DNA of 64,000 nt from Terriglobia bacterium (GCA_020072965.1 JAIQFY010000010.1:108243-172242), one strand, 5' to 3'. Shown: positions 11,176 to 50,932, numbered from the stretch's first letter. Notes: generated by a model not told the origin, from the sequence alone. Program-made: numbers and translations.

Positions 11176-11862
11176 TTGAAGGCCTATCATTGGAGCCTCT
11201 TCCATTCTCATTCTGCGCCCCCCACAATGGCTCCTTGTCCACAGGACTTTAGTCCAAAGGAATGGGCGATCATCCGTAAATGTCGCACTCCTCGGCAGGT
11301 CCAGGAGTTCCTGCGCAATCTTCCATACAACTGGGAAAAGGAAACCCTGCGAACCTTTCGACAGGTGGCTCGCCATGGATCGGCCCATTGTCTTGAAGCT
11401 GCCCTGGCTGCAGCCACGATCATGGAACAGCATGGTTATCCCCCCGTGTTGCTCGATCTGGAGTCCAAGGACAATCTGGATCACGTCCTTTTTTTGTACC
11501 GCCAACATGGACATTGGGGGACGGTAGCCAAGTCGCGCGATGCCGGGTTGCACGGCCGCAAGCCGGTATTCCGGTCGATCCGGGATTTGGTGATGAGTTA
11601 CGTCGAACCTTATGTCGATTTCACCGGGCGGATCACGGGATACGGGGTGACTGATTTGAATAAACTCGTCCCCCGCTGCAACTGGCGCCTTTCAGAACGG
11701 AACATCTGGGTGGTGGAACGCGCGCTCATACACATGCCCCACAAGAAAATCAAAACCTCCACTGCACGTTTCAGGCGCGCGTTGAAGCGCTACCTCAATT
11801 TCAAAAAACGATTTCCTCACCGCCAAGCAACCTATTATAGAAACCGGCATCAGTGGTTATGA
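11176..11862 (+). CDS. Hypothetical protein (basic C-terminus)
   Basis: 228-aa ORF, TTG start in track; internal ATG at 11227 is an alternative start. No family recognised. Confidence 0.4.
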   Translation: MKAYHWSLFHSHSAPPTMAPCPQDFSPKEWAIIRKCRTPRQVQEFLRNLPYNWEKETLRTFRQVARHGSAHCLEAALAAATIMEQHGYPPVLLDLESKDNLDHVLFLYRQHGHWGTVAKSRDAGLHGRKPVFRSIRDLVMSYVEPYVDFTGRITGYGVTDLNKLVPRCNWRLSERNIWVVERALIHMPHKKIKTSTARFRRALKRYLNFKKRFPHRQATYYRNRHQWL

Positions 11863-18639: not shown

Positions 18640-18740
18640 AATTCCAAAAACCAAATGCCTGAAGCAAAGTCCAGACATCAAAATCCAAATTCCAAACAAA
18701 CTCCAGAACCCAAAAACCAAAGACGAACCCGCCGAAGAAT
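18640..18740. repeat. Low-complexity CCAAA/CAAA-rich tract in the rel upstream region
   Basis: ccaaaaaccaaatgcc...caaaatccaaattccaaacaaactccagaacccaaaaaccaaag. Seen directly. Confidence 0.4.
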
Positions 18741-29760: not shown

Positions 29761-29855
29761 GGTATATAGTCGCGAATTAGCCTGTTTGTCGCCCTTCTGA
29801 CAATCCGTTTTGACTTACGCGAAGTCCTTCGGTCTTTTCCTGGCACCCTCACAAT

Positions 29856-29928
29856 TGCTCACTGCTCACTGCCCACCGCCCACTGCTCGCTGTCCACCGC
29901 CCACTGCTCGCTGTCCACCGCCCACTTT
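29856..29928. repeat. Tandem 21-mer repeat (CCACCGCCCACTGCTCGCTGT x2.7) preceded by a GCTCACTGCTCACTGC motif
   Basis: Seen directly between the two ABC ATPase genes. A related GCTCACTGCTCACTGC motif recurs at about 33500-33520 downstream of the Smr gene. Confidence 0.6.
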
Positions 29929-33364: not shown

Positions 33365-33505
33365 ATTAGTGTAAATCGGAAATCTTCATGGATGCTGCTT
33401 TGAGAAAGGGTGCGCCTATTGGAACCCCTACATTTTTATCCCTGTTTTTCACTGGCACCCGACGCCTGGCACCCCGCACACTTTTCACCACCCACCGCTC
33501 ACTGC

Positions 33506-33913
33506 TCACTGCTCCTTCAACACCACCCACGTCGCGCCCCACCCTCCTGCCTCCGGCCTCGCATCTCTGAAAGACGCCACCAGCGGATGCTTTGAGAGCA
33601 CCGATCGGACTATCTCACGCTGAACCCCAATCCCCCGGCCGTGGACGATTCGCATCCTGCGAAATCCTTTCTCGTGAGCCTCCCGGAGGTATTCTTCAAG
33701 GACGACCTTTATTTCTTTTGGTGAAAAAGTATGGAGATCGATGGAATCTTCGATAGGAATGGTGATGGGCTCTCGGGAGGAGAAGGCCTCCCCCTCATGA
33801 TTTTGGAGTTCCACCTTCTGGGCTCCCGTCTCTGGCTTCTGACTTCCGGCTTCTGACTTCTGACTTCCCTTCTCAGGGAAGAAAGACCCCACAGGTTTGG
33901 ATTTTTTGTTCAA
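33506..33913 (-). CDS. Smr domain protein with low-complexity N-terminal linker
   Basis: C-terminal Smr domain (IDLHTFSPKE...RIVHGRGIG). The N-terminal GSQKSEAGSQKPETGAQK tract is encoded by an (AGAAGTC)n heptamer array. Confidence 0.65.
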   Translation of the reverse strand: MNKKSKPVGSFFPEKGSQKSEAGSQKPETGAQKVELQNHEGEAFSSREPITIPIEDSIDLHTFSPKEIKVVLEEYLREAHEKGFRRMRIVHGRGIGVQREIVRSVLSKHPLVASFRDARPEAGGWGATWVVLKEQ

Positions 33914-35964: not shown

Positions 35965-38900
35965 CTAACGAGACGATTTCCCCACTGCCAGTGGCGAGCC
36001 GTCATCCCCAAAGAAGCTGAGCGCAGCGACGGAGGCCTCGGTGCCGATATTCAAGAAAATGAATTGGGTTTGATAGCCTCCCCCATCGGCGATTTGAGGA
36101 AAGATGATCGGGAAGGGGACAGGACGAGCCAGATCAGCGACTGGAAAGGTCGTCAGCAAAAAATCCCCACGCGCGGTGTTCAGCGAACGCATAGTCAGTG
36201 CCACGAAGCTGGCAGGAGCACTCATATCCAAGACCCCCTTGAAATCATCGGGAAGATCTGAAATCAACTCTCCCACAAACATTGCGGCGTGACCATTGGC
36301 ATTGAGATTCAAGAAGGCGAGACCCTTGCCGGCCGGGGTCCTGCCATCAAGGTGAAAAGCACTCAGGGCGATCGGGTCGGCGCCACTCTGGGGAAATGCA
36401 ATGGCTAAACCTGTGTCGTGGCCGTTCGATTTGTCAATGTAAATCCGCGCATGATTAGTCGGAAGGGCCGATGGAATTCCGGATTCCGTTACCAGGATTC
36501 CCCCCTGCGTGAGACCGAAAATCCCCGCACCGACCGGGACCTGGCTTCCTTGATTAGCTGTCACCCGGATCCAGCCCGAATTCACCGTGGGCGGTGAGCC
36601 GTCAGTTTGAAGCACAAAGATCCCCCCTGGTTTTATGGTATACGCAAAGGAGGAGCCCGAATTCCCAATGACCGGCCGGACCACACGCGGCGCCCCATCG
36701 TCTGCAAAAAGCTGAATGTTTCCGGTTTCGTCCAACCCCGAAGTGTTCAGCAAAACGACTGTCGACTGGTATCCGCCTCCATCAACTACATGTGCAAAGA
36801 AGAGCTCAGTTTCAGACGCAGTTTTCGTCAAATCGGCGATGGGAGTGGTGGTGATGAGCGTTTCACCCCGCTGATTCGTGGTTAACCGGAGGGCGACGAT
36901 GGAGAGCGGCTGGTCACTCCCGATTTCAAGGGAGCCAAATTTCGTGACTGTTGGAAAATCCGCGGCTAACTGAAAATCGGGGGCGACGTCATGAAGTTGG
37001 TCAATGAATTTGGAGAGGTGTGTACCAGCGGCGAGCACGCTGTGGCCCGAGGCCAACAGCTGACCGGCGGCATCCCGCAAGGTGAATGATACATTGGCCG
37101 CGTTCCCGCCGGGGTTTACGAGGGCGAATCCGGTGTCGATGCTAATGCTCGCTGCATCAGGATGATCAGATTTGGACGGTACACTGGTACGGTAATCGAT
37201 GAAGATCCGAGCCGCTGTTGTCGGCGGGGACACTGGAACACCCGCCTCAGTCACTACATGGCCGTTCTGTTCAAGACTAAACACGGCGGTCCCAACGAGT
37301 AATCCACTACCTGAACCCACGTCTACCGTGACATAGCCGGCTTGAACAAAGCCTGCCCCTTCCCTGGTGAAAACGGATTGCGCTCCGCCATCTATAAGAT
37401 TCATAGCGATCTGAGCATTAGCGGCCGGGCAGGAATTCAGGAGGACCGCATCGGGCGCCACAACATCGGGCTTTCCGTCTCCGTTGATGTCGCTAACTCC
37501 AATGAATGCGGAAGAGATGCCAAGGCTATAATCCACGGGGTTCTGTAAAGTGCCATCCCCGTTCCCCAAGAGGATCGAGACACTGGAGTTCAAATTAGCC
37601 ACTGCCAGATCGAGCTTGCCATCCCCATTGAAGTCACCGATCGCGAGGGAGCCGGCACTCGAAATGTCACCAAAACTAACCGGAGCCTGGAACGTCCCAT
37701 CCCCATTCCCCCTAAGGAGGACCACGCTACCGCTGAGGTTCATAAATGAGCGTCCCACGGCCAGATCGAGAATCCCATCTCCATTGAAGTCCCCTACGGC
37801 AATCTGCCCGGGCGAGATTCCCACTTCAATGGATCCAGCGTCCTGGAAGGTCCCATCCCCGTTTCCCCTGAGAAGCGCCACAAATCCAAGGCCTCCGACA
37901 CTGTTGCCGGAATCAATGACCGCCAGATCAGGAATCCCGTCGCCGTTGAAGTCTCCTGTCACGGCTGACGCCCCGGGATTTGTACCCGCAAGGTTATGGA
38001 TTGGCGGCTGAAACGTGCCATCCCCGTTCCCCAGTAAAATGGTGACATCCCCGCGCTGCGAGAAAAAGTTGTGCACCACCTGGCTGGGGTTCACTACCGC
38101 CAAATCGAGCATACCGTCGTTATTGAAATCTGAAACGACAATGTAGAAAGGATTTGATCCCGCCGCAATTTTCGAGGAAGCCTGAAAAGTGCCATCCCCG
38201 TTCCCCAACAGAATTGAAATGTCTTTGGAGGTGAAATTACTCACCACCAGATCCGTCTTTCCATCCCGGTTGAAATCGCCCGCGGTAACGAACACCGGAC
38301 TCGATCCGACAGGATAAGTCGATGGTGTTCGAAAAGAGCCGTCGCCATTCCCCAACAAGATTGCCAGCGTATCCGAACCCCGATTAGGCACTGACAGATC
38401 GGGTATTCCATCACCGTTCAGATCTGCCAGCCAGAATCGTCCCGGGCCTGATCCCGTGCTGTAGTTCACCGCACTTTGAAAAGTCCCGTCGCCCTTCCCA
38501 ACCAAAATGGCGAGGGTGTCGTTGGAGATGTTTGCTGCCGCCAAGTCGCGTTTCCCATGCCCCGTAAGATCCCCCACGGCAACAAACACGGAATTAAACG
38601 GCAGACTGATGGCCATCGGAGGCCGGAAGGAGCCATCGCCGTTTCCTAACATGACTGAAGAATCCGCCACCAGATCGAGATTGCCGTCGCCGTTGAAGTC
38701 GCCCGGGATGACGAATCCGAACGCGGTTCCAGGGCTGTCTATCGGGGCTTGAAAGGTACCATCTCCTTTGCCGAGCAAAATCGAGACCCTCCCATTCGGA
38801 CCCCGGACGGCGAGATCCGTTGTGCCGTCACGATTGAAATCGCCAGCAGCAAAAGGGATGGCTGCAGCGGCACCAACGCCAGGCCCATTCCGGAAGGTGC

Positions 38901-39627
38901 CATCGCCATTCCCCAACAAGATGAATACTGATTCCAGGCTCACTCCGGCGATCACCAAGTCTGCGATTCCATCGCCATTAAAATCTGCGGCGACCAGCGA
39001 GGAGGGAAACGTCGCCAGGGTGGTATCTGAAGTTGTCTGAAAGGTGCCATCACCGTTTCCCAGAAATACAGAGACACTCTTTGAGAATTGGTTTGCCACA
39101 ACAAAATCGAGTTTACCGTCCCGGTTGAAGTCGCCGGTCACGACGGAGTTCGGTCCGATGCCAGCCTGGTAGTCCGCGGCCGCCCCGAAGGAGCCATCAC
39201 CTTTACCCAGAAGGATCGACACATCGTTGTCCCGCTGATTCACCACCACCAAGTCGGGCTTGTTGTCCCCATTAAAATCTCCAATGGCCACGGACACCGG
39301 ATCGGATCCGACGCCATAATTCACAGCGGCCTGAAAGGTCCCATCCCCTTTCCCGAGCAGGATGGAAACATTGTTGGAACCGAAATTGACAGCGACGAGG
39401 TCTCCCTTGCCATCTCCGTTGAAGTCACCTATGGCCACGAATACAGGGGTAGCGCCGGCAATGAAATCGGGTTTCACTGAGAAACTTGGAGTCGTGCAGG
39501 CAATGGCGGCAGCAAGGAGGTTCCGTCCAACAATACCAGAGAGACTCACCATCATGAGCAGGACATACCAAAGCGTCCAGGAATGAAGACCAAGGTCCTT
39601 TCCGGTCTTATTGCTCACTTCTTTCAC
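35965..39627 (-). CDS. Large secreted FG-GAP/VCBS-repeat (integrin-alpha-like beta-propeller) protein with duplicated C-terminal domain
   Basis: 1220 aa. Signal peptide. About 17 repeats of GDFNGDGKxDLvv.N..sn.VSILLGNGDGTFQ. C-terminal ~450 aa contains two copies of an unidentified ~190-aa domain, each ending ...TTPIADL / ...TTFPVADL. Confidence 0.8.
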   Translation of the reverse strand: MKEVSNKTGKDLGLHSWTLWYVLLMMVSLSGIVGRNLLAAAIACTTPSFSVKPDFIAGATPVFVAIGDFNGDGKGDLVAVNFGSNNVSILLGKGDGTFQAAVNYGVGSDPVSVAIGDFNGDNKPDLVVVNQRDNDVSILLGKGDGSFGAAADYQAGIGPNSVVTGDFNRDGKLDFVVANQFSKSVSVFLGNGDGTFQTTSDTTLATFPSSLVAADFNGDGIADLVIAGVSLESVFILLGNGDGTFRNGPGVGAAAAIPFAAGDFNRDGTTDLAVRGPNGRVSILLGKGDGTFQAPIDSPGTAFGFVIPGDFNGDGNLDLVADSSVMLGNGDGSFRPPMAISLPFNSVFVAVGDLTGHGKRDLAAANISNDTLAILVGKGDGTFQSAVNYSTGSGPGRFWLADLNGDGIPDLSVPNRGSDTLAILLGNGDGSFRTPSTYPVGSSPVFVTAGDFNRDGKTDLVVSNFTSKDISILLGNGDGTFQASSKIAAGSNPFYIVVSDFNNDGMLDLAVVNPSQVVHNFFSQRGDVTILLGNGDGTFQPPIHNLAGTNPGASAVTGDFNGDGIPDLAVIDSGNSVGGLGFVALLRGNGDGTFQDAGSIEVGISPGQIAVGDFNGDGILDLAVGRSFMNLSGSVVLLRGNGDGTFQAPVSFGDISSAGSLAIGDFNGDGKLDLAVANLNSSVSILLGNGDGTLQNPVDYSLGISSAFIGVSDINGDGKPDVVAPDAVLLNSCPAANAQIAMNLIDGGAQSVFTREGAGFVQAGYVTVDVGSGSGLLVGTAVFSLEQNGHVVTEAGVPVSPPTTAARIFIDYRTSVPSKSDHPDAASISIDTGFALVNPGGNAANVSFTLRDAAGQLLASGHSVLAAGTHLSKFIDQLHDVAPDFQLAADFPTVTKFGSLEIGSDQPLSIVALRLTTNQRGETLITTTPIADLTKTASETELFFAHVVDGGGYQSTVVLLNTSGLDETGNIQLFADDGAPRVVRPVIGNSGSSFAYTIKPGGIFVLQTDGSPPTVNSGWIRVTANQGSQVPVGAGIFGLTQGGILVTESGIPSALPTNHARIYIDKSNGHDTGLAIAFPQSGADPIALSAFHLDGRTPAGKGLAFLNLNANGHAAMFVGELISDLPDDFKGVLDMSAPASFVALTMRSLNTARGDFLLTTFPVADLARPVPFPIIFPQIADGGGYQTQFIFLNIGTEASVAALSFFGDDGSPLAVGKSSR

Positions 39628-39716
39628 CTCCGATTACTCAGAACTTCACTCGTCAAACAAACCAATTCTAGCACTTTGGTCTCCGACTATTCGGATCTCG
39701 ATCGCAAGGTGATCCA

Positions 39717-42380
39717 CTACCTTGCGTTTTTCCCCACTGCCATGCTCGAGCCGTCGTCTCCAAAGAAGTTGAGCGTTGTGCTGGCCCCGCCTGTCGCGCT
39801 CAGCAGAATAAACTGAGTCGTGAATCCTCCACCGGCGGCGATTTGAGGGAAGATCATAGGGCTTGGGGCAGGCTGATTCACGTCCGCGATTGGAAAAGTG
39901 GTCAACAGAAAATCTCCGCCCGTGGCACTGAGTGAGCGAAGAGTGAGCGCCGCGAAGGGAGTCGCCGGGAGGAATATCGTTGGTAGTGAAGTGACATCCA
40001 AAACTCCGGTGAAGCCCTCGGGCAGGGATGCAATGAAAAACTGGTTGGCAAACTTAGCCGCATGTCCGTTGGGGTCGAGATCCAGGCTCCCCGTCGCGAC
40101 CGGCGTGATCCCATCCGCTTCAAATGCCGTGATCGAAGCATGAAGAGGCACACTCCCGGCAATGGCGATGGCCACCCCCGTGTTGTGCCGGTTCGTCAGA
40201 TCAACGTAGAGGCGTGCATGAGTGGTTAGATTTGCCGAGGGGATACCGGACTCGGTGACGAGATTACCAGCTCTCCGGAGACTGAATATCCCAGCGCCGA
40301 CCGGGGTCGTGGTCCCGGAATCTGGTGTAAGCTGGACCGAGCCTGCATTCACGAATTGCGGCGATCCGTCGGTCTGAAAGATGAAAACTCCCTCCGGGGG
40401 GATCAAGTATGGGAACGAGGATCCCGACGAACCGTTGATCGCATTCACCGATAGAGGAGAACCGGAATCGCTGAAGATTTTCAGATTCCCCGTCTCCACC
40501 CCCTCGGAGGTGTTCAGGAGCACCAGGGTCGTCCGGTAACCCCCTCCATCCACCAGTTGAGGAAAGGAAAGAGGATCTTGCGACGGGGCCTTGGTCAAAT
40601 CCGCGATGGGTGTGGTTGTCAGTAGCGTTTCCGATTGCTGGTTGGTAGTCAACCGCAACGCCACGATGGACATCGGTTCTTCGCTCGTGATCTCCAAAGA
40701 CCCAAATCCAACCTCAGTCGGAAAGTTCGGCGGCACAACCAAGCCGGGAGCCAGCTCAGTAATGAAGTTTGCCAGGTGAGCTTTTGAGGGGAGAGTTATA
40801 GCGCCTGAAGCCAGGACTTTCCCTTGTGAATCCCGTAACTTCAAGGCGATCTGAGCCGTATTTGTCCCAAGGTTAACCACGGCGAGCCCCGTGTTGACAC
40901 TGATTGCGCCTGAGCTCTCCTGATTGGACTTCGAAGGGACTACATTTCGATAATCAATAAAAATCCGGGCATCCAAAGTCGGGGGGGAAGCGGGGACGCC
41001 CGCCTCACTGACCACCACACCGTTCTGAACAAGGCTGAACACGGCAACTCCGTATGGCGCACTTCCCGAATTCGTATCAACGGTTGCGTAGCCTGCCTCA
41101 ACATTGCCGATTCTACCCAGCGTCGAAAGGGTGCCCGATCCTCCTGCCGTAACGGCGAGGGTCACGGAGCTCTTCGGGGTCAGGCAGGTGCTCAGATCAA
41201 TGTAAAGGTTGTTGAGAGAAGAATTGAACGCCGCCAAGTCGGGCTGTCCATCCCCGTTGAAGTCACCACTGATGAGGGAGCGCCCACCCACAGCGGCACT
41301 TAGGGTTGGGCCGATCTTAAAAGTCCCGTCCCCGTTCCCCCATAGAACTGAAACGTCCTTGGTGAATTGGTTGATCCCCGCCAAATCCGTTTTGCCATCT
41401 CCATCAAAGTCAGCCGTTACAAACGGACTCAGGCCGGCGGTGGCAAGATCTATCACAGGGGCCTGAAATGTTCCATCCCCATTGCTGAGTAAAACGGAAA
41501 TGACGCTGGCCTTCGACGCCGCTAGGTCGGTCTTCCCATCCCCGTTGAAATCGCCCGTTGCAACCAGTCCATCAAAACTGGATCCACCCAAGAAGCTCGA
41601 ACCTGGTTGGAAAGTCCCATCACCTTTCCCAAGCAAAATCGAGATCTCGCTGGTGGTCGCCACGGCCAAGTCTGTCTTCCCGTCACCATTAAAATCACCG
41701 GCAGCCAACGATTTGGGGGAAGACACAATCCCAATGTCCTGCGATGGCTGAAAAGTCCCGTCGCCCTTCCCCAGAATGATCGACACCCCTGTGAAACTGA
41801 CTACAGCCAAATCGAGTTTGTTGTCCTTGTTAAAATCGGCCACTGCTACATAGATCAAGATCGACCCCGGCACAAACACCAAAGGAGATTGGAAGGCGCC
41901 ATCACCTTTCCCAAGCCAAATCGAAACGGTGCTGGGACCTTGGAAATGTATGCTGCCGCCATTCTCAATCAGGACCAGATCCACCTTTCCATCCCCGTTA
42001 AAATCCCCCACGGCAGCGGAACTCACACTTCCTCCGCGAGTGTCCGAGTTGATGGGCAAGCGGAATGTTCCATCGCCGTTGCCGAGAAGGACAACAACAG
42101 AGAATGCGAGTGAGTTGATGTTGCCCCTATGGCTGAATCCAATGACATCGGAAATTCCATCCCCATTAAGGTCTCCAGCCACCACGAAAGAATCTCCTAA
42201 GTTGAGGTTAACGGTGGGAGCACCTAGAAAACCTGGGGTTGTGCACCCACTGGAGGCGTGCAATACCGATATTGGACCGTTGCATAATGCAAGAAGATAG
42301 ATGCTGAGTACCAACATGAAAGGAAAAAATTCGAAGGAACGGCGGCTTTTGTTCAGTATAGTCATTGCTGTGCACCTCAA
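39717..42380 (-). CDS. Large secreted FG-GAP/VCBS-repeat protein, tandem paralog of 35965..39627
   Basis: 887 aa. Same repeat type (GDFNGDGKTDLA...SILLGKGDGTFQ). Same C-terminal duplicated domain and C-terminal tail (NFFGDDGSSMAVGKNAR versus SFFGDDGSPLAVGKSSR). Confidence 0.8.
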   Translation of the reverse strand: MRCTAMTILNKSRRSFEFFPFMLVLSIYLLALCNGPISVLHASSGCTTPGFLGAPTVNLNLGDSFVVAGDLNGDGISDVIGFSHRGNINSLAFSVVVLLGNGDGTFRLPINSDTRGGSVSSAAVGDFNGDGKVDLVLIENGGSIHFQGPSTVSIWLGKGDGAFQSPLVFVPGSILIYVAVADFNKDNKLDLAVVSFTGVSIILGKGDGTFQPSQDIGIVSSPKSLAAGDFNGDGKTDLAVATTSEISILLGKGDGTFQPGSSFLGGSSFDGLVATGDFNGDGKTDLAASKASVISVLLSNGDGTFQAPVIDLATAGLSPFVTADFDGDGKTDLAGINQFTKDVSVLWGNGDGTFKIGPTLSAAVGGRSLISGDFNGDGQPDLAAFNSSLNNLYIDLSTCLTPKSSVTLAVTAGGSGTLSTLGRIGNVEAGYATVDTNSGSAPYGVAVFSLVQNGVVVSEAGVPASPPTLDARIFIDYRNVVPSKSNQESSGAISVNTGLAVVNLGTNTAQIALKLRDSQGKVLASGAITLPSKAHLANFITELAPGLVVPPNFPTEVGFGSLEITSEEPMSIVALRLTTNQQSETLLTTTPIADLTKAPSQDPLSFPQLVDGGGYRTTLVLLNTSEGVETGNLKIFSDSGSPLSVNAINGSSGSSFPYLIPPEGVFIFQTDGSPQFVNAGSVQLTPDSGTTTPVGAGIFSLRRAGNLVTESGIPSANLTTHARLYVDLTNRHNTGVAIAIAGSVPLHASITAFEADGITPVATGSLDLDPNGHAAKFANQFFIASLPEGFTGVLDVTSLPTIFLPATPFAALTLRSLSATGGDFLLTTFPIADVNQPAPSPMIFPQIAAGGGFTTQFILLSATGGASTTLNFFGDDGSSMAVGKNAR

Positions 42381-46876: not shown

Positions 46877-47060
46877 GGTTGGATCCCGGCCTGATGAACT
46901 GCCTGATGAGCGGGATGGTAAGGGAAGGCCCTCCCTGCGTCAACTCAAAACTCGAGGCCTTGTTGCTTGCACTGCGGGGCTATGCTATAAACGAATTCAG
47001 GTGTCGGGTGTCCGGTGCCAGGTGCCAGAAAGTTGGAAACACGAGTGAGAGGCCGGGAAC

Positions 47061-47158
47061 AGAAGTCGGAAGTCAGAGGTCGGAACGTAGAGTCGAAAAG
47101 GCAGATATTCCAGGGATTGTACTTCGGACTTTGAACTTTGAACCTTGAACTTTGAACT
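47061..47158. repeat. Heptamer tandem arrays (AGAAGTC)n and (TTGAACT)n; inverted copy of the 50187..50373 element
   Basis: agaagtcggaagtcagaggtcgg ... ttgaactttgaaccttgaactttgaact seen directly. It is the reverse complement of the arrays at 50187-50373. Confidence 0.6.
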
Positions 47159-47189
47159 GGATTTCTTGGGCTTTGGACTCTTCTAAATC

Positions 47190-47894
47190 ATGAAAGTTCA
47201 AGTTCTTTACTTCGCCTACTGTCGTGACCTGATGGGTCGGGAGCGCGAGTGGTTGACTCTTGATGACAGCGCGCGCGTTTCGGACCTGCTGGCAAAGTGT
47301 CTTTCTGAGAAGCCTGCCCTGGAACCGCTCCGCCGGAACCTTCTCGTTGCAGTCAACCAGGAATATGCCCAATCCGATCAGCTTCTTGCGGATGGTGATG
47401 AAGTTGCCCTCTTTCCCCCGGTCAGTGGTGGCGCTGTGGAGGTCGAGGCCCTTCGGGATTTCTATGCCGTCACACACACGCCGATCGATTCTGCCCAAGT
47501 CATCCAGGCGTTGAAACGGCCCGAGGACGGGGCGGTCGTGGTCTTCGATGGGATTGTTCGCAACAACTCCCGCGGCAAGCGGACGAGGTACGTGGAATAT
47601 CACGGGTACGAGCCCATGGCGCTGAAGAAAATTCGTGAAATCGGCGAACGGATCAAATCCATGTGGGACATCGACGGTGTTGCCATTACCCACCGGCTCG
47701 GCCATTTGGACATCGGGGAATCGAGCGTGCTGATTGTGGTAACTTCGGCCCACCGCAAAGCTGCGTTTGATGCCTGCCACTACGCCATTGATCTCCTCAA
47801 GAAGACCGTTCCGATTTGGAAGAAAGAGTGCTTTGAGGACGGCGAAATGTGGATTGAAGGCGATGTGCCGGTAAAAGCCTGCCGCGAGCACTGA
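47190..47894 (+). CDS. Fused molybdopterin synthase MoaD-MoaE (MoaX-like)
   Basis: N-terminal ~81 aa MoaD ending ...LFPPVSGG, directly fused to MoaE (FDGIVRNNSRGK...HRLGHLDIGE...VPIWKKE). Confidence 0.8.
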   Translation: MKVQVLYFAYCRDLMGREREWLTLDDSARVSDLLAKCLSEKPALEPLRRNLLVAVNQEYAQSDQLLADGDEVALFPPVSGGAVEVEALRDFYAVTHTPIDSAQVIQALKRPEDGAVVVFDGIVRNNSRGKRTRYVEYHGYEPMALKKIREIGERIKSMWDIDGVAITHRLGHLDIGESSVLIVVTSAHRKAAFDACHYAIDLLKKTVPIWKKECFEDGEMWIEGDVPVKACREH

Positions 47895-48098
47895 TTGGAA
47901 GGGCCAGCCTTCCTCCGGGAGGTTTTTTTGCCGTTCGGGTTATTTTGGCTCCGCTTCTGAACCAACGCTCCCCCAGTTTACGGCATCCAAGGTGAATGAA
48001 AAAGTCGATTAGGGAGAGTCGCGAGCCAGGAGCGAAGTCAGGGCTCCTGTCCGACCGGCCTCTGAAGGTTTCCTCCATGCAACCAGAAAACCTCGCCA

Positions 48099-49121
48099 AT
48101 GATTAAACAGATGGCTCCCTCCCACTCAGCACCAGTGGCGGTGAACCGCCTGGTCCGCTGCACCTTTTGTTCTTTTATCCTCCTTTCAATATTCGGTGGG
48201 ACGAAGATCCTTCTTTGTGCCCCTCCGCAAGCCGGCCCAGGCGGCGCAAAACAGTTGCAGGAAAGGGCGGCACCAGGCCAGGAAACCCCAACGGCGCGAT
48301 TCAAAGTGGACGTCAACTTGACCGTGGTTTACGCCACCGTGACTAATCCGAACGGGTGGGTGGACCGGAGTTTGACGCGTGAAGACTTTGAGCTTAAAGA
48401 AAATGGACAGAAGCAGGAGATAGCATTCTTCAGCCGGGAGTCCGAATTGCCCTTGAGGGTTGCCTTGCTGGTGGATTCAAGTCTGAGCACGGCTCGCGAC
48501 CTGAAATTCGAATCCGAGGCGGCAATCCGGTTCTTCCGGTCGGTACTGCGGCCGCAGGATGGGGGCTCCGTATTTGAGTTTTCATACGATGTCCACCAGC
48601 TCACCAACTATACCAACGACATCGAGGCCTTATCGCGAGGGATCAGGGCCATTTCCCCAGAGACCGCCACCTCTCTCTTTGACGCTATATACCTGGCCTC
48701 CGACACGCTGAAGTCCCGCAAGCAGAAGAAGGTCATGGTCATCGTCTCGGACGGGGCAGATACCACGAGCAAGATCAGCTATGCGCAGGCGCTTCGGGCC
48801 GCCAACGAAGCCGAAGCCATCATCTTTTCGGTCATCATCATGCCGGTGAAGAGTGACGCCGGCAGGGCGCTGGGCGGTGAGCATGCCCTGATGACGCTTT
48901 CGGAAGAGACTGGCGGAATGTCGTTTTTCCCTAATACCATTACCGAGCTGGATAGCATCTACTCGAAAATCAGCGAGGAGTTGCGCACTCAGTACACGCT
49001 GGGATTTTATTCCACGGTCAATGCGCCCTCAACTCAACTGCGGCGCATCACGCTCACAACCCGCAATCCCCGCCTCACGGTCCGAACCCGTCGAGGGTAC
49101 TTCTCTAAACCGGGCTCGTAA
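48099..49121 (+). CDS. von Willebrand factor A (VWA) domain protein, secreted
   Basis: Signal-like N-terminus. VWA MIDAS region LLVDSSLSTARD. Ends NPRLTVRTRRGYF. Confidence 0.7.
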   Translation: MIKQMAPSHSAPVAVNRLVRCTFCSFILLSIFGGTKILLCAPPQAGPGGAKQLQERAAPGQETPTARFKVDVNLTVVYATVTNPNGWVDRSLTREDFELKENGQKQEIAFFSRESELPLRVALLVDSSLSTARDLKFESEAAIRFFRSVLRPQDGGSVFEFSYDVHQLTNYTNDIEALSRGIRAISPETATSLFDAIYLASDTLKSRKQKKVMVIVSDGADTTSKISYAQALRAANEAEAIIFSVIIMPVKSDAGRALGGEHALMTLSEETGGMSFFPNTITELDSIYSKISEELRTQYTLGFYSTVNAPSTQLRRITLTTRNPRLTVRTRRGYFSKPGS

Positions 49122-49401
49122 TTTCAAACGTTTCCCGCAATTATTTCTACCCCGGGACGATTTCGCGGCTATAATCCAACTTCGGTTAGAGACGACCTTT
49201 CAACCTGAATTTCGAAATGTGAACACCGATGAGTGCGCCGGGTTGGCGGGGTGCCGCGAGAATGGTGCGGCTCCGGAAGCAGGATGTCTGATCTACCCTT
49301 CACGACGACTCGGATTACGGGTCCCCACGGCCACCCAACGGGGACTAGACACCGAAGGTTTCCTTCTATTTCCTGGATTCGAGGACTAATCATTTTCCAC
49401 T

Positions 49402-50184
49402 ATGCTTCCCTATCTTGAAACGGCGCTGGACGCGGCGAGGGCAGCCGGCGATGTTCTCCTGCGCTCCTACGAAAAACCCAAGGATATCGAGTACAAGGGC
49501 GATGTCGACCTGGTCACGGAGGTCGATCGCGCCTCGGAGCAACTCATTCTCGAAAAGATCCTTGGGCAGTATCCCACCCATGCCATTGTGGCGGAGGAAA
49601 GCGGTCTCCGGAAGTCCGATTCAGAATATCGCTGGATCATTGATCCCCTGGATGGCACAACCAACTACGCTCACAATTTGCCCCTGTTTTCAGTCTCCAT
49701 CGCGCTGGAATACCGGAAAGAGATCATCGTGGGTGTCGTCTACGACCCGGTTCGGCCCGAGCTTTTTTTCGCCGAGAAGGATCGGGGGGCCTACCTGAAC
49801 GGCAAACCCATTTCGGTATCTACCGTCGACAATCTGGGCCGCTCTCTGCTTGTGACCGGTTTCCCGATCCGCAAGCGGGAAGAAGCGGAAACTAATTTGC
49901 AGGTCTTTCGGGCTTTCACCATGCGCGGGCAAGGGGTCCGCCGGCTCGGAAGTGCCGCCCTCGATATCTGCTACGTTGCCTGTGGACGCTTCGAAGCGCA
50001 TTGGGAGTTCCGTCTTCATGCCTGGGATACTGCCGCAGCCAGCCGGATTCTCTTAGAGGCAGGAGGACGCATCACCGATTTTGGAGGTCAACCGTTCGAT
50101 CCGTTCGGAACCGAAACTCTCGCAACCAACGGCAGAATCCACGAGTCCATGATGCAAGTGCTGGCGCCCTTTCGAGATAAGTAA
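49402..50184 (+). CDS. suhB: Inositol monophosphatase family protein (SuhB-like)
   Basis: 260 aa, motifs EESG, WIIDPLDGTTNYAHNLP, WDTAAA. Confidence 0.85.
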   Translation: MLPYLETALDAARAAGDVLLRSYEKPKDIEYKGDVDLVTEVDRASEQLILEKILGQYPTHAIVAEESGLRKSDSEYRWIIDPLDGTTNYAHNLPLFSVSIALEYRKEIIVGVVYDPVRPELFFAEKDRGAYLNGKPISVSTVDNLGRSLLVTGFPIRKREEAETNLQVFRAFTMRGQGVRRLGSAALDICYVACGRFEAHWEFRLHAWDTAAASRILLEAGGRITDFGGQPFDPFGTETLATNGRIHESMMQVLAPFRDK

Positions 50185-50186
50185 GG

Positions 50187-50373
50187 AGTTCAAAGTTCAA
50201 GGTTCAAAGTTCAAAGGCCAAAGTCCAATGAAAATCTAGTTCAAGGTTCAAAGTTCAAAGTTTAAGGTACCGTTTCGACCCTGACTTCCGACTTCTGACT
50301 TCCGACTTCTGACTTCTGACTTCTGGCTTCTGACTTCTGGCTTCTGACTTCTGGCCTCCAGCCTCCGGCTTGT
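50187..50373. repeat. Two adjacent heptamer tandem arrays: (AGTTCAA)~11 at 50187-50265 and (GACTTCT)~13 at 50283-50373
   Basis: agttcaaagttcaaggttcaaagttcaaaggccaaagtccaa... and gacttccgacttctgacttccgacttctgacttctgacttctggcttctgacttctgg... Period 7 verified by eye. Confidence 0.7.
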
Positions 50374-50400
50374 AGTCCCTGGCCACCGACAGCTAACAAA

Positions 50401-50763: not shown

Positions 50764-50823
50764 CCCGGGATTTTTAAGGTTTATGTGGTCTCTGACTCAG
50801 CCGGGAAATCGTCATTCTGGATA

Positions 50824-50932
50824 CAGAAGTCGGAAAGTCGGAGATCAGATTGAGAATTCCCAGTTCGAGGCGTCTACGCCGGACCGGGTGCCTTTAATCT
50901 GACATCTGTACTCCGGCTTCTGACTTCGCCGG
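50824..50932. repeat. Partial copies of the GACTTCT-type repeat in both orientations
   Basis: cagaagtcggaaagtcggag (50824-50843) and cggcttctgacttcgccgg (50914-50932). Confidence 0.4.

Follow-up and report, generated by a model that had tools for sequence, protein, structure and literature searches.

Heptanucleotide repeat arrays in gene spacers of an uncultured Terriglobia lineage, with an inverted composite pair around moaDE-VWA-suhB

We studied tandem arrays of 7-nt units in a 64-kb stretch of DNA (here called the window) from the metagenome-assembled genome (MAG) of an uncultured member of Terriglobia (Acidobacteriota; GCA_020072965.1, JAIQFY010000010.1, positions 108243 to 172242). The most conspicuous arrays form two composites that flank, in opposite orientations, the genes for a MoaD-MoaE fusion (moaDE), a VWA protein, and the inositol monophosphatase SuhB. 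All counts of arrays within this genome refer to the window. The arrays are a lineage-specific case of the known excess of heptanucleotide repeats in bacterial spacers. They are probably arrays of the long simple sequence repeat (LSSR) or short tandemly repeated repetitive (STRR) type, satellite-like tracts in untranslated regions (UTRs) and spacers that turn over by slippage or unequal exchange. This explanation is backed by the dominance of period 7 in the window and in unrelated loci, by sites that are shared between lineages with differing copy numbers, and by strain differences that center on the arrays. An uncultured soil clade of Terriglobia thereby joins the bacteria known to bear heptanucleotide arrays.

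Tandem Repeats Finder called period-7 arrays at 47062-47085 (unit GAAGTCG, 3.4 copies), 47117-47158 (TTGAACT, 6.0 copies, 82% matches), 50187-50262 (AGTTCAA, 10.6 copies, 70% matches), 50281-50353 (CTGACTT, 10.4 copies, 87% matches), and 33831-33867 (TCTGACT, 5.3 copies), plus a short one at 50827-50842. Two-unit probes with up to two mismatches were compared with dinucleotide shuffles of the window. Probe GACTTCTGACTTCT had 16 matches against 0.47 expected, with none of 100 shuffles reaching as many, and probe AGTTCAAAGTTCAA had 11 against 0.32 expected. Self-match windows (threshold of at least 23/28) numbered 71 at period 7 and 53 at period 14, with 0 to 2 at each remaining period from 2 to 15. 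The (AGTTCAA)n and (GACTTCT)n arrays that an earlier, sequence-only reading of this DNA had located at 47061-47158 and 50187-50373 are thus confirmed at those positions. They are nonrandom and far above chance, and both their existence and their periodicity are direct observations.

Four unit families were distinguished, with primes marking reverse complements: A (AGTTCAA), B (GACTTCY), C (GRCACCY), and D (CACTGCY). The last two had not been mentioned in the sequence-only reading. Type C occurs as (GGTGYCR)n at 46998-47028, and type D occurs as (CACTGCY/CACCGCC)n at 29849-29926 and 33479-33514, each time preceded by a C-type remnant. The four families occupy at least six loci in 64 kb, in agreement with the dispersed repeat family suggested earlier. 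Five of the six array loci are spacers between Pfam-supported genes, and the sixth (33831-33867) is coding. Two unit variants often alternate within an array, giving a 14-nt unit, and one D array shows a higher-order unit of 21 nt. The A, B', and C units agree at 5 of 7 positions, a likeness that is not significant on its own; we argued kinship between unit types solely from transitional units seen within arrays. A single array at 47119-47137 contains such units (TACTTCG, GACTTTG, and AACTTTG), from which it appears that a unit first mutates and the variant is then amplified into a new type. Elsewhere in the window, a degenerate stretch of period 7/32 (18644-18721; CAAAGTC, CAAAATC, and CAAATTC), adjoining a 730-amino-acid (aa) minus-strand open reading frame (ORF) on its upstream side, resembles a decayed A-type array.

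The relationship between the two composites could be traced beyond their repeat units. The arms at 47116-47158 and 50187-50229 (43 nt) are 93% complementary and share a 30-nt perfect core, and those at 47060-47101 and 50270-50311 (42 nt) are 86% complementary, which confirms the proposed inverted-copy arrangement. When aligned in two lineages, the composite downstream of suhB and the reverse complement of 46990-47189 were paralogous over their full length, arrays and linkers alike. Both run in the order of an A array with the junction GAAATCYAGTTCAA, a nonrepeat linker (GTAC..CCKTTTCGAC in the window and RAGAATKCCACCTTYTTC in the related loci L135 and L136), a B array, a GGGTTCC segment, and a C-type tail. 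Downstream of suhB, the B array degenerates into GGCCTCC/AGCCTCC units followed by a C-like tail, CCTGGCCACCGACAGC, that reaches the start codon of a gene for a 120-aa protein. Per alignment column, the copies are ~69% identical. The paralogy is thus directly supported: sequence comparison shows true inverted paralogy, nonrepeat linkers included, for the composites on either side of moaDE-VWA-suhB. Because it extends along the whole length, an element of ~200 nt appears to have been duplicated in inverted orientation before the lineages diverged.

The SuhB protein of the window is 100% identical to a database entry from an Acidobacteriia/Terriglobia MAG. We fetched 18 related loci through SuhB homologues, falling into four tiers; some contigs end short of the full block. 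The order and orientation of trkA (minus strand) and moaDE, VWA, and suhB (plus strand) were kept for all genes covered in 18/18 loci, whether or not they bore arrays. This bears on the possibility that the inverted composites are recombination sites that flip the 3-kb moaDE-VWA-suhB block, and on the earlier suggestion that the block might be inverted or absent in relatives. The 30-nt perfect identity within 43- and 42-nt inverted arms lying 3 kb apart would fit such a role. However, all 18 loci show a single orientation and neither inversion nor absence of the block was seen among them, Pfam finds no recombinase domain in the neighboring genes, and a flip would part moaDE from the conserved promoter-like site upstream of it (described below). 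We give this possibility almost no credence.

Distant relatives (L001/2, L004, L005, and L006-8; SuhB 75 to 84% identical at the aa level) have the same gene order with short spacers that lack period-7 arrays; these spacers are 19 to 37 nt long and cannot be aligned with the window. L003 (89% aa identity) carries a decayed period-7 stretch, including (ACCTGAC)n, in the spacer downstream of suhB. Arrays are present at the same five sites in three lineages with ~85 to 92% nucleotide identity in coding anchors, namely, the window, L129-L134, and L135/L138 with L136/L137. Copy numbers and unit variants differ by lineage (for example, GTCCAAR in L129 versus GTTCAAR in the window). The trkA-moaDE spacer measures 313, 382, 308, and 330 nt across the array-bearing lineages, and its B' array has ~5 to 6 units in the window, ~16 in L129, and ~8 in L135. 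The spacer downstream of suhB measures 216, 292, and 193 nt, with an A array of ~10 units in the window, ~24 in L129, and ~6 in L135.

Turnover was also visible at short range. Most differences between the ~99%-identical L135 and L136 fall within the arrays. The D array at the Smr 3' end and truA spacer of L136 equals that of L135 plus exactly one heptamer (a 7-nt indel), a 22-nt indel lies in the A' array, and clustered substitutions homogenize three B units. L136 and L137 further carry a 250-nt deletion (~11340-11345, versus 11340-11590 in L135) with CCC microhomology at its ends. It removes the whole spacer between the gene for the 120-aa protein and the UDG (uracil-DNA glycosylase) gene, together with the hairpin described below, and leaves the stop codon of the former 4 nt from the start codon of the latter. 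Orthologous conservation and copy-number turnover are therefore observed directly, and the copy-number variation anticipated by the sequence-only reading is borne out both by the spacer lengths and by the 7-nt indel between nearly identical strains. Followed through relatives without arrays, one in which an array has decayed, three lineages at the species level, and two strains that are ~99% identical, the same five spacers amount to an unusually clean natural time series. The series displays arrays arising, homogenizing, expanding, decaying, and being deleted, with one array fixed in a protein linker. L135 and L136 also differ by an indel of ~620 nt (L135 16250-16880), located in or beside a hypothetical minus-strand gene and not related to repeats.

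We propose the following course of events. In an uncultured clade of Terriglobia, arrays would have colonized the noncoding DNA between genes and, in one protein, a disordered linker. The composite of ~200 nt (A array, linker, B array, linker, C array) would have been duplicated in inverted orientation around moaDE-VWA-suhB before the split of the three lineages. Each array would then evolve as a small satellite, in which units may be added, removed, and homogenized in steps of 7 nt, often 14 or 21 nt, through replication slippage or unequal exchange, and point mutations would create new unit variants that are later amplified. The arrays may be transcribed and would then be passive passengers in three settings: within the 5' leader of moaDE, in the spacer 3' of suhB, and between cistrons. 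A long imperfect RNA hairpin would form wherever a purine-rich array stands opposite one that is complementary to it, with or without G-U pairs, and such a hairpin may secondarily affect mRNA stability or processing.

Similar arrays are widespread outside this clade. The B-type unit, searched as (CTTCYGR)x3.5, was found at at least 120 loci in species-representative genomes, and the matches listed include Acidobacteriota, Cyanobacteria (Okeania, Moorena, and Crocosphaera), Nitrospirota, Bacteroidota, Planctomycetota, Verrucomicrobiota, Omnitrophota, and Streptomyces. At least 120 contigs of JGI metagenomes matched (GTTCAAR)x3.5; several of these carry an array followed by its reverse complement 40 to 60 nt further on. 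B-type (CTTCYGR)n also occurs in 89 viral contigs (L259-L347, IMG/VR). The unrelated genome loci (820 kb) held 236 period-7 arrays against at most 15 at any period besides 7 or 14. The corresponding figures were 274 against at most 19 for the metagenome loci and 189 against at most 26 for the viral loci, so that period 7 exceeds each nonmultiple period ~7- to 20-fold in all three sets. Many other unit sequences were present among the period-7 arrays flanking the matches. Prevalence across phyla is thus a matter of observation, and the dominance of period 7 in the flanks of the viral contigs suggests that the heptamer bias extends to phage or prophage DNA. These loci, together with the orthologous spacers of the three lineages, do not support the earlier suggestion that the arrays are genome specific. 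A crude count of ORF context for 129 B-type arrays from other phyla was uninformative: stretches open for 100 codons or more contained 55 of them, the other 74 fell between such stretches, and no orientation bias was seen. One distant acidobacterium, a Pyrinomonadaceae MAG (L079, DASVPY010000052.1), has (GTTCAAG)n and (GAAGTCA/GGAGTCA)n arrays at 250-344 and 1648-2733, each array directly followed by its reverse complement in perfect facing pairs, with 8 arrays in 3.7 kb.

None of the 329 unrelated loci examined had A and B arrays within 400 nt of each other, which indicates that the composite is lineage specific and its units are not. This result also weighs on the suggestion that the A-B-C composite is a mobile element, like a miniature inverted-repeat transposable element (MITE) or a repetitive extragenic palindrome (REP), that inserted on both sides of the operon and left decayed copies at the other loci. 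Such an origin would account for two paralogous ~200-nt copies in opposite orientations with nonrepeat linkers included, for partial copies at 50818-50932 and 33831-33867 and C+D composites at two further sites, and for the B-type arrays in viral contigs. Yet an inverted-repeat search of the window revealed no terminal inverted repeats joining the ends of either composite, both copies are orthologous in three lineages without insertion polymorphism, and their identity is low. Pfam scans, which covered part of the window ORFs, found no transposase or REP-associated tyrosine transposase (RAYT) in the array-flanking genes and no RAYT gene among the scanned ORFs of the 64-kb window. We consider a mobile origin quite improbable, and the earlier suggestion of MITE-like remnants is not supported.

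The placement of the arrays relative to transcription signals was judged from sequence motifs. A promoter-like site upstream of moaDE (TTGCTT-17 nt-TATAAA) (Table 1) is kept in the window, in L129, L135, and L136, and in the array-free distant relatives L001, L004, and L005. A consensus scan skips it, as its -10 hexamer ends in A, and consensus promoter and terminator scans found nothing within the arrays. As the arrays begin 7 nt past this site, moaDE probably has a leader of ~190 nt, and the arrays would probably lie within it. A terminator-like hairpin, AGCCTTCCTCCGGGAGGTT followed by TTTTTT (47906-47924), is located 12 nt past the moaDE stop codon, and from this site moaDE may be transcribed apart from VWA-suhB. 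We set aside the idea that the 5' composite pairs with the 3' one within a single polycistronic mRNA, in view of this terminator-like site and of competing local hairpins.

Next, we considered the folding of the arrays as RNA. Between the gene for the 120-aa protein and UDG, a B' arm and a B arm form a hairpin, which substantiates the partial copy noted earlier at 50824-50932. Its sense strand has a minimum free energy (MFE) of -50.6 kcal/mol (z = -5.27; 0/200 shuffles as stable), compared with -39.8 for the antisense strand (z = -2.49). A consensus stem was predicted over three lineages (3 sequences), with few compensatory changes and several broken pairs. In the moaDE leader, MFE folds of all lineages pair the purine-rich B' array with A' through G-U pairs, and the sense strand is 16 to 25 kcal/mol more stable than the antisense strand. 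The significance of these leader folds is mixed: z is -2.9 in L135 (2/200 shuffles as stable) and -2.25 in L129, and the window's own leader is no more stable than its shuffles (z = 0.15). Folds of the suhB spacer did not differ significantly from shuffles (z of -0.05 to -1.5). An Rfam search of 28 to 53 kb (E of ≤1) gave no family match to the arrays and only a chance-level RsmZ match inside the Smr gene.

The arrays might be functional RNA elements, forming transcribed UTR or intercistronic hairpins in which a purine-rich B' arm pairs with a B arm or, through G-U pairs, with an A' arm, and which are cut by RNase III or block exonucleases, in the manner of Haemophilus influenzae hmw or of the REP elements of Escherichia coli. 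The (ATCTTTC)n tract of hmw forms part of the transcribed 5' UTR, where it base-pairs with a G-rich arm and is cleaved by RNase III, the hairpin being needed for changes in repeat number (PMC12721329). The hmw precedent, the sense-strand stability and consensus stem of the hairpin before UDG, the B'-A' pairing with a more stable sense strand in every lineage, and the L135 leader all speak for such a role, as do the leader arms, which are both long in L129 and both short in the window. But the window leader and the suhB spacer folds are not significant, compensatory changes are few among 3 sequences, the hairpin before UDG is cleanly deleted in L136/L137, and no Rfam family matches. The asymmetry between sense and antisense strands is moreover mostly compositional, since the shuffle means shift alike. 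A function at the RNA level, which partly overlaps with the satellite-like turnover that we favor, is possible, but we lean against it.

The array inside the Smr gene provides a different kind of evidence. The sequence-only reading had placed a repeat unit inside coding sequence at 33830-33870, and this was upheld. The Smr frame, which reads through the array as EKGSQKSEAGSQKPETGAQK, is open from a TTG start codon in the window, L129, L135, and L136, and the other two frames hold stops. The ribosome-binding site of this start overlaps the stop codon of the methylmalonyl-CoA mutase gene. The array peptides EKGSQKSEAGSQKPETG, ERGSRKPEVGSQKPEAG, and EEGRQKSEVRSRKPEAG are conserved, with the pattern E(K/R)GS(Q/R)K..E.G.. 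in all four sequences. Array length and frame are unchanged across lineages, as expected if changes of ±7 nt are selected against. Gene callers assigned Smr a length of 87, 95, 134, or 138 aa in sequences that are identical or nearly so, misled about the start codon by the heptamer tract and by the TTG start. For annotation, such tracts disturb start-codon calls and are probably not mobile elements. At the Smr-truA site, L129 has B-type units in place of the D array.

These observations can be set against the view, also raised in the sequence-only reading, that the arrays are phase-variation (contingency) tracts in which gain or loss of 7 nt switches or tunes moaDE, the gene for the 120-aa protein, or Smr. 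As in hmw (PMC12721329), a heptamer repeat lies between a promoter-like site and a start codon; ~99%-identical strains are separated by a 7-nt indel; and period 7 would shift the frame inside Smr. The tracts are however imperfect, with 70 to 87% matches rather than near-perfect homogeneity, and the neighboring genes are of the housekeeping type. The six assemblies of the L129 lineage are identical, the Smr array keeps its length and frame in all lineages, and arrays persist in a decayed state, which is unexpected for actively selected switches. Phase variation is an unlikely role, and the proposal of a phase-variation substrate is not supported.

Several points count against slippage-driven turnover as well. 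The imperfection of the tracts should slow slippage. Spacers and arrays do not differ among six independent assemblies of the L129 lineage. A purely neutral model is strained by the retention of arrays at the same sites over ~10% nucleotide divergence and by the highly significant hairpin before UDG, both of which hint at selective maintenance. Finally, the slippage model leaves the cause of the 7-nt preference unexplained. One speculative answer is that the arrays are not passive but are maintained as paired arms of transcribed hairpins, a purine-rich (GAAGUCR)n arm facing a complementary or G-U-complementary (GACUUYN)n arm, and that transcription, folding, and RNase III together tune expression and drive the gain and loss of units. 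By analogy with hmw this is conceivable, and we regard it as doubtful. If true, and if it held for Acidobacteria, Cyanobacteria, Nitrospirota, Bacteroidota, and phages alike, this mechanism would account for the 7-nt excess in prokaryotes. The hmw-type idea could reasonably be tested on loci such as this one, whose 5' leader contains complementary arrays that face each other.

Comparison with known systems places the arrays among heptanucleotide LSSRs and STRR-type repeats. Heptanucleotides are the most abundant class of long simple sequence repeats in prokaryotes according to Mrazek, Guo, and Shah (2007), as summarized in PMC4679880 and PMC4692102. According to the same summaries, these authors propose that the stretch of DNA in contact with the polymerase may be 7 nt long, which would favor slippage. 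The excess has been noted since 2007. The window arrays resemble LSSRs, as these summaries present them, in their head-to-tail 7-nt units, period-7 excess beyond chance, bias toward noncoding DNA, and sporadic occurrence across phyla; they also comprise several families and share sites with variation. They differ in that several unit types are chained into a composite that is present as an inverted paralogous pair. In the literature searched, we found no report of heptamer arrays for Acidobacteriota or for these units.

The cyanobacterial STRR heptamers (Mazel et al. 1990, as mentioned in PMC4692102) offer a second parallel. Like them, the arrays studied here include several heptamer families per genome, are intergenic, and often face each other as inverted arrays. 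The host belongs to Terriglobia, however, and the units (AGTTCAA, GACTTCY, GRCACCY, and CACTGCY) are not the STRR1 to STRR3 units of cyanobacterial hosts, which separates them from STRR sequences sensu stricto. The STRR units are CCCCAGT, TTGGTCA, and CAACAGT. Arrays of the GAAGTCA type do occur in contigs of Okeania, Moorena, and Crocosphaera. Rehm et al. described GGGAATC arrays that occupy matching intergenic sites in two Xanthomonas species, vary widely in length, and include some inverted pairs (PMC4692102). The GGGAATC/GGGGAYT repeats of Xanthomonas and Nostoc share the inverted pairs with the window, but their units are G-rich and form G-quadruplexes, whereas the window units are not G-tract repeats. 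MacGregor reported TAACTGA arrays common to Beggiatoaceae, Cyanobacteria, and Bacteroidetes (PMC4679880), a similar case of one heptamer in distant phyla, mostly upstream of start codons. Those arrays are short (2 to 6 copies) and stand directly before start codons, whereas the window has longer arrays of several types that flank genes on either side. A Nostoc preprint attributes modest regulatory effects to heptamer arrays near recF and recO (10.1101/2022.06.06.494920).

Two further comparisons concern the hairpins. Like hmw1A and hmw2A (PMC12721329), moaDE has a heptamer repeat between a promoter-like site and the start codon with predicted pairing to a complementary purine-rich arm. The hmw tract, by contrast, is perfect, phase variable, and attached to a virulence gene, with RNase III cleavage demonstrated, whereas the arrays here are imperfect, have housekeeping neighbors, and form a leader hairpin that is not significant in the window. 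The hairpin at 50818-50932 is a stable imperfect palindrome in a spacer within an operon-like gene row and is dispensable in a close strain, which recalls the REP and bacterial interspersed mosaic elements (BIMEs) of enterobacteria. Unlike these, it has no short conserved palindromic consensus, and its arms are built of heptamer units.

Table 1. Positions of arrays, genes, and predicted signals in the window
Feature	Position	Strand	Basis	Remarks
C-type remnant and type D array	29838..29926	+		Spacer of 169 nt separating two opp-type ABC ATPase genes; period 7, higher-order unit of 21 nt
C-type remnant CTGGCACCCGACGCCTGGCACCC, then type D array	33441..33514	+		CACCGCT CACTGCT CACTGCT; Smr 3' end and spacer before truA
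Type B' array	33831..33867	-	Tandem Repeats Finder, Pfam, frame check	N-terminal linker of Smr-domain protein (ORF 33506-33913)
Promoter-like site GCTATGCTATAAAC	46963..46991	+		Upstream of moaDE
Type C' array	46998..47028	+	Tandem Repeats Finder	(GGTGYCR) x4.4; L129 orthologue, four perfect AGGTGTC units; L135 orthologue, five degenerate units
Type B' array and linker GTCGAAAAGG	47060..47101	+		AGAAGTC/GGAAGTC (reverse complement of GACTTCY), ~5 to 6 units
Type A' array	47116..47158	+		TTGAACY (reverse complement of AGTTCAA), 6 units; B-like transitional units first
moaD-moaE fusion	47190-47894	+	Pfam	
VWA protein	48099-49121	+	Pfam	
Inositol monophosphatase SuhB	49402-50184	+	Pfam	
Two type A arrays	50187..50265	+		AGTTCAA/GGTTCAA, 6 + 4 units with 14-nt alternation; AATGAAAATCT between them
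Linker GGTACCGTTTCGACC, then type B array	50266..50400	+		GACTTCY x10.4
Hairpin with arms of B' and B heptamers	50818..50932	+		115 nt; between the 120-aa response-regulator-like gene and UDG

Besides the genes listed in Table 1, Pfam supports a TrkA-type channel (minus strand), the response-regulator-like 120-aa protein, UDG, and Smr. Pfam also identifies a pair of large FG-GAP-repeat proteins, of 1220 and 887 aa, encoded on the minus strand at 35965-42380, between the methylmalonyl-CoA mutase and 85-aa genes on one side and a TPR gene on the other. The close relatives L129 and L135 have nothing at this place, which makes this a lineage-specific insertion of ~6.5 kb.

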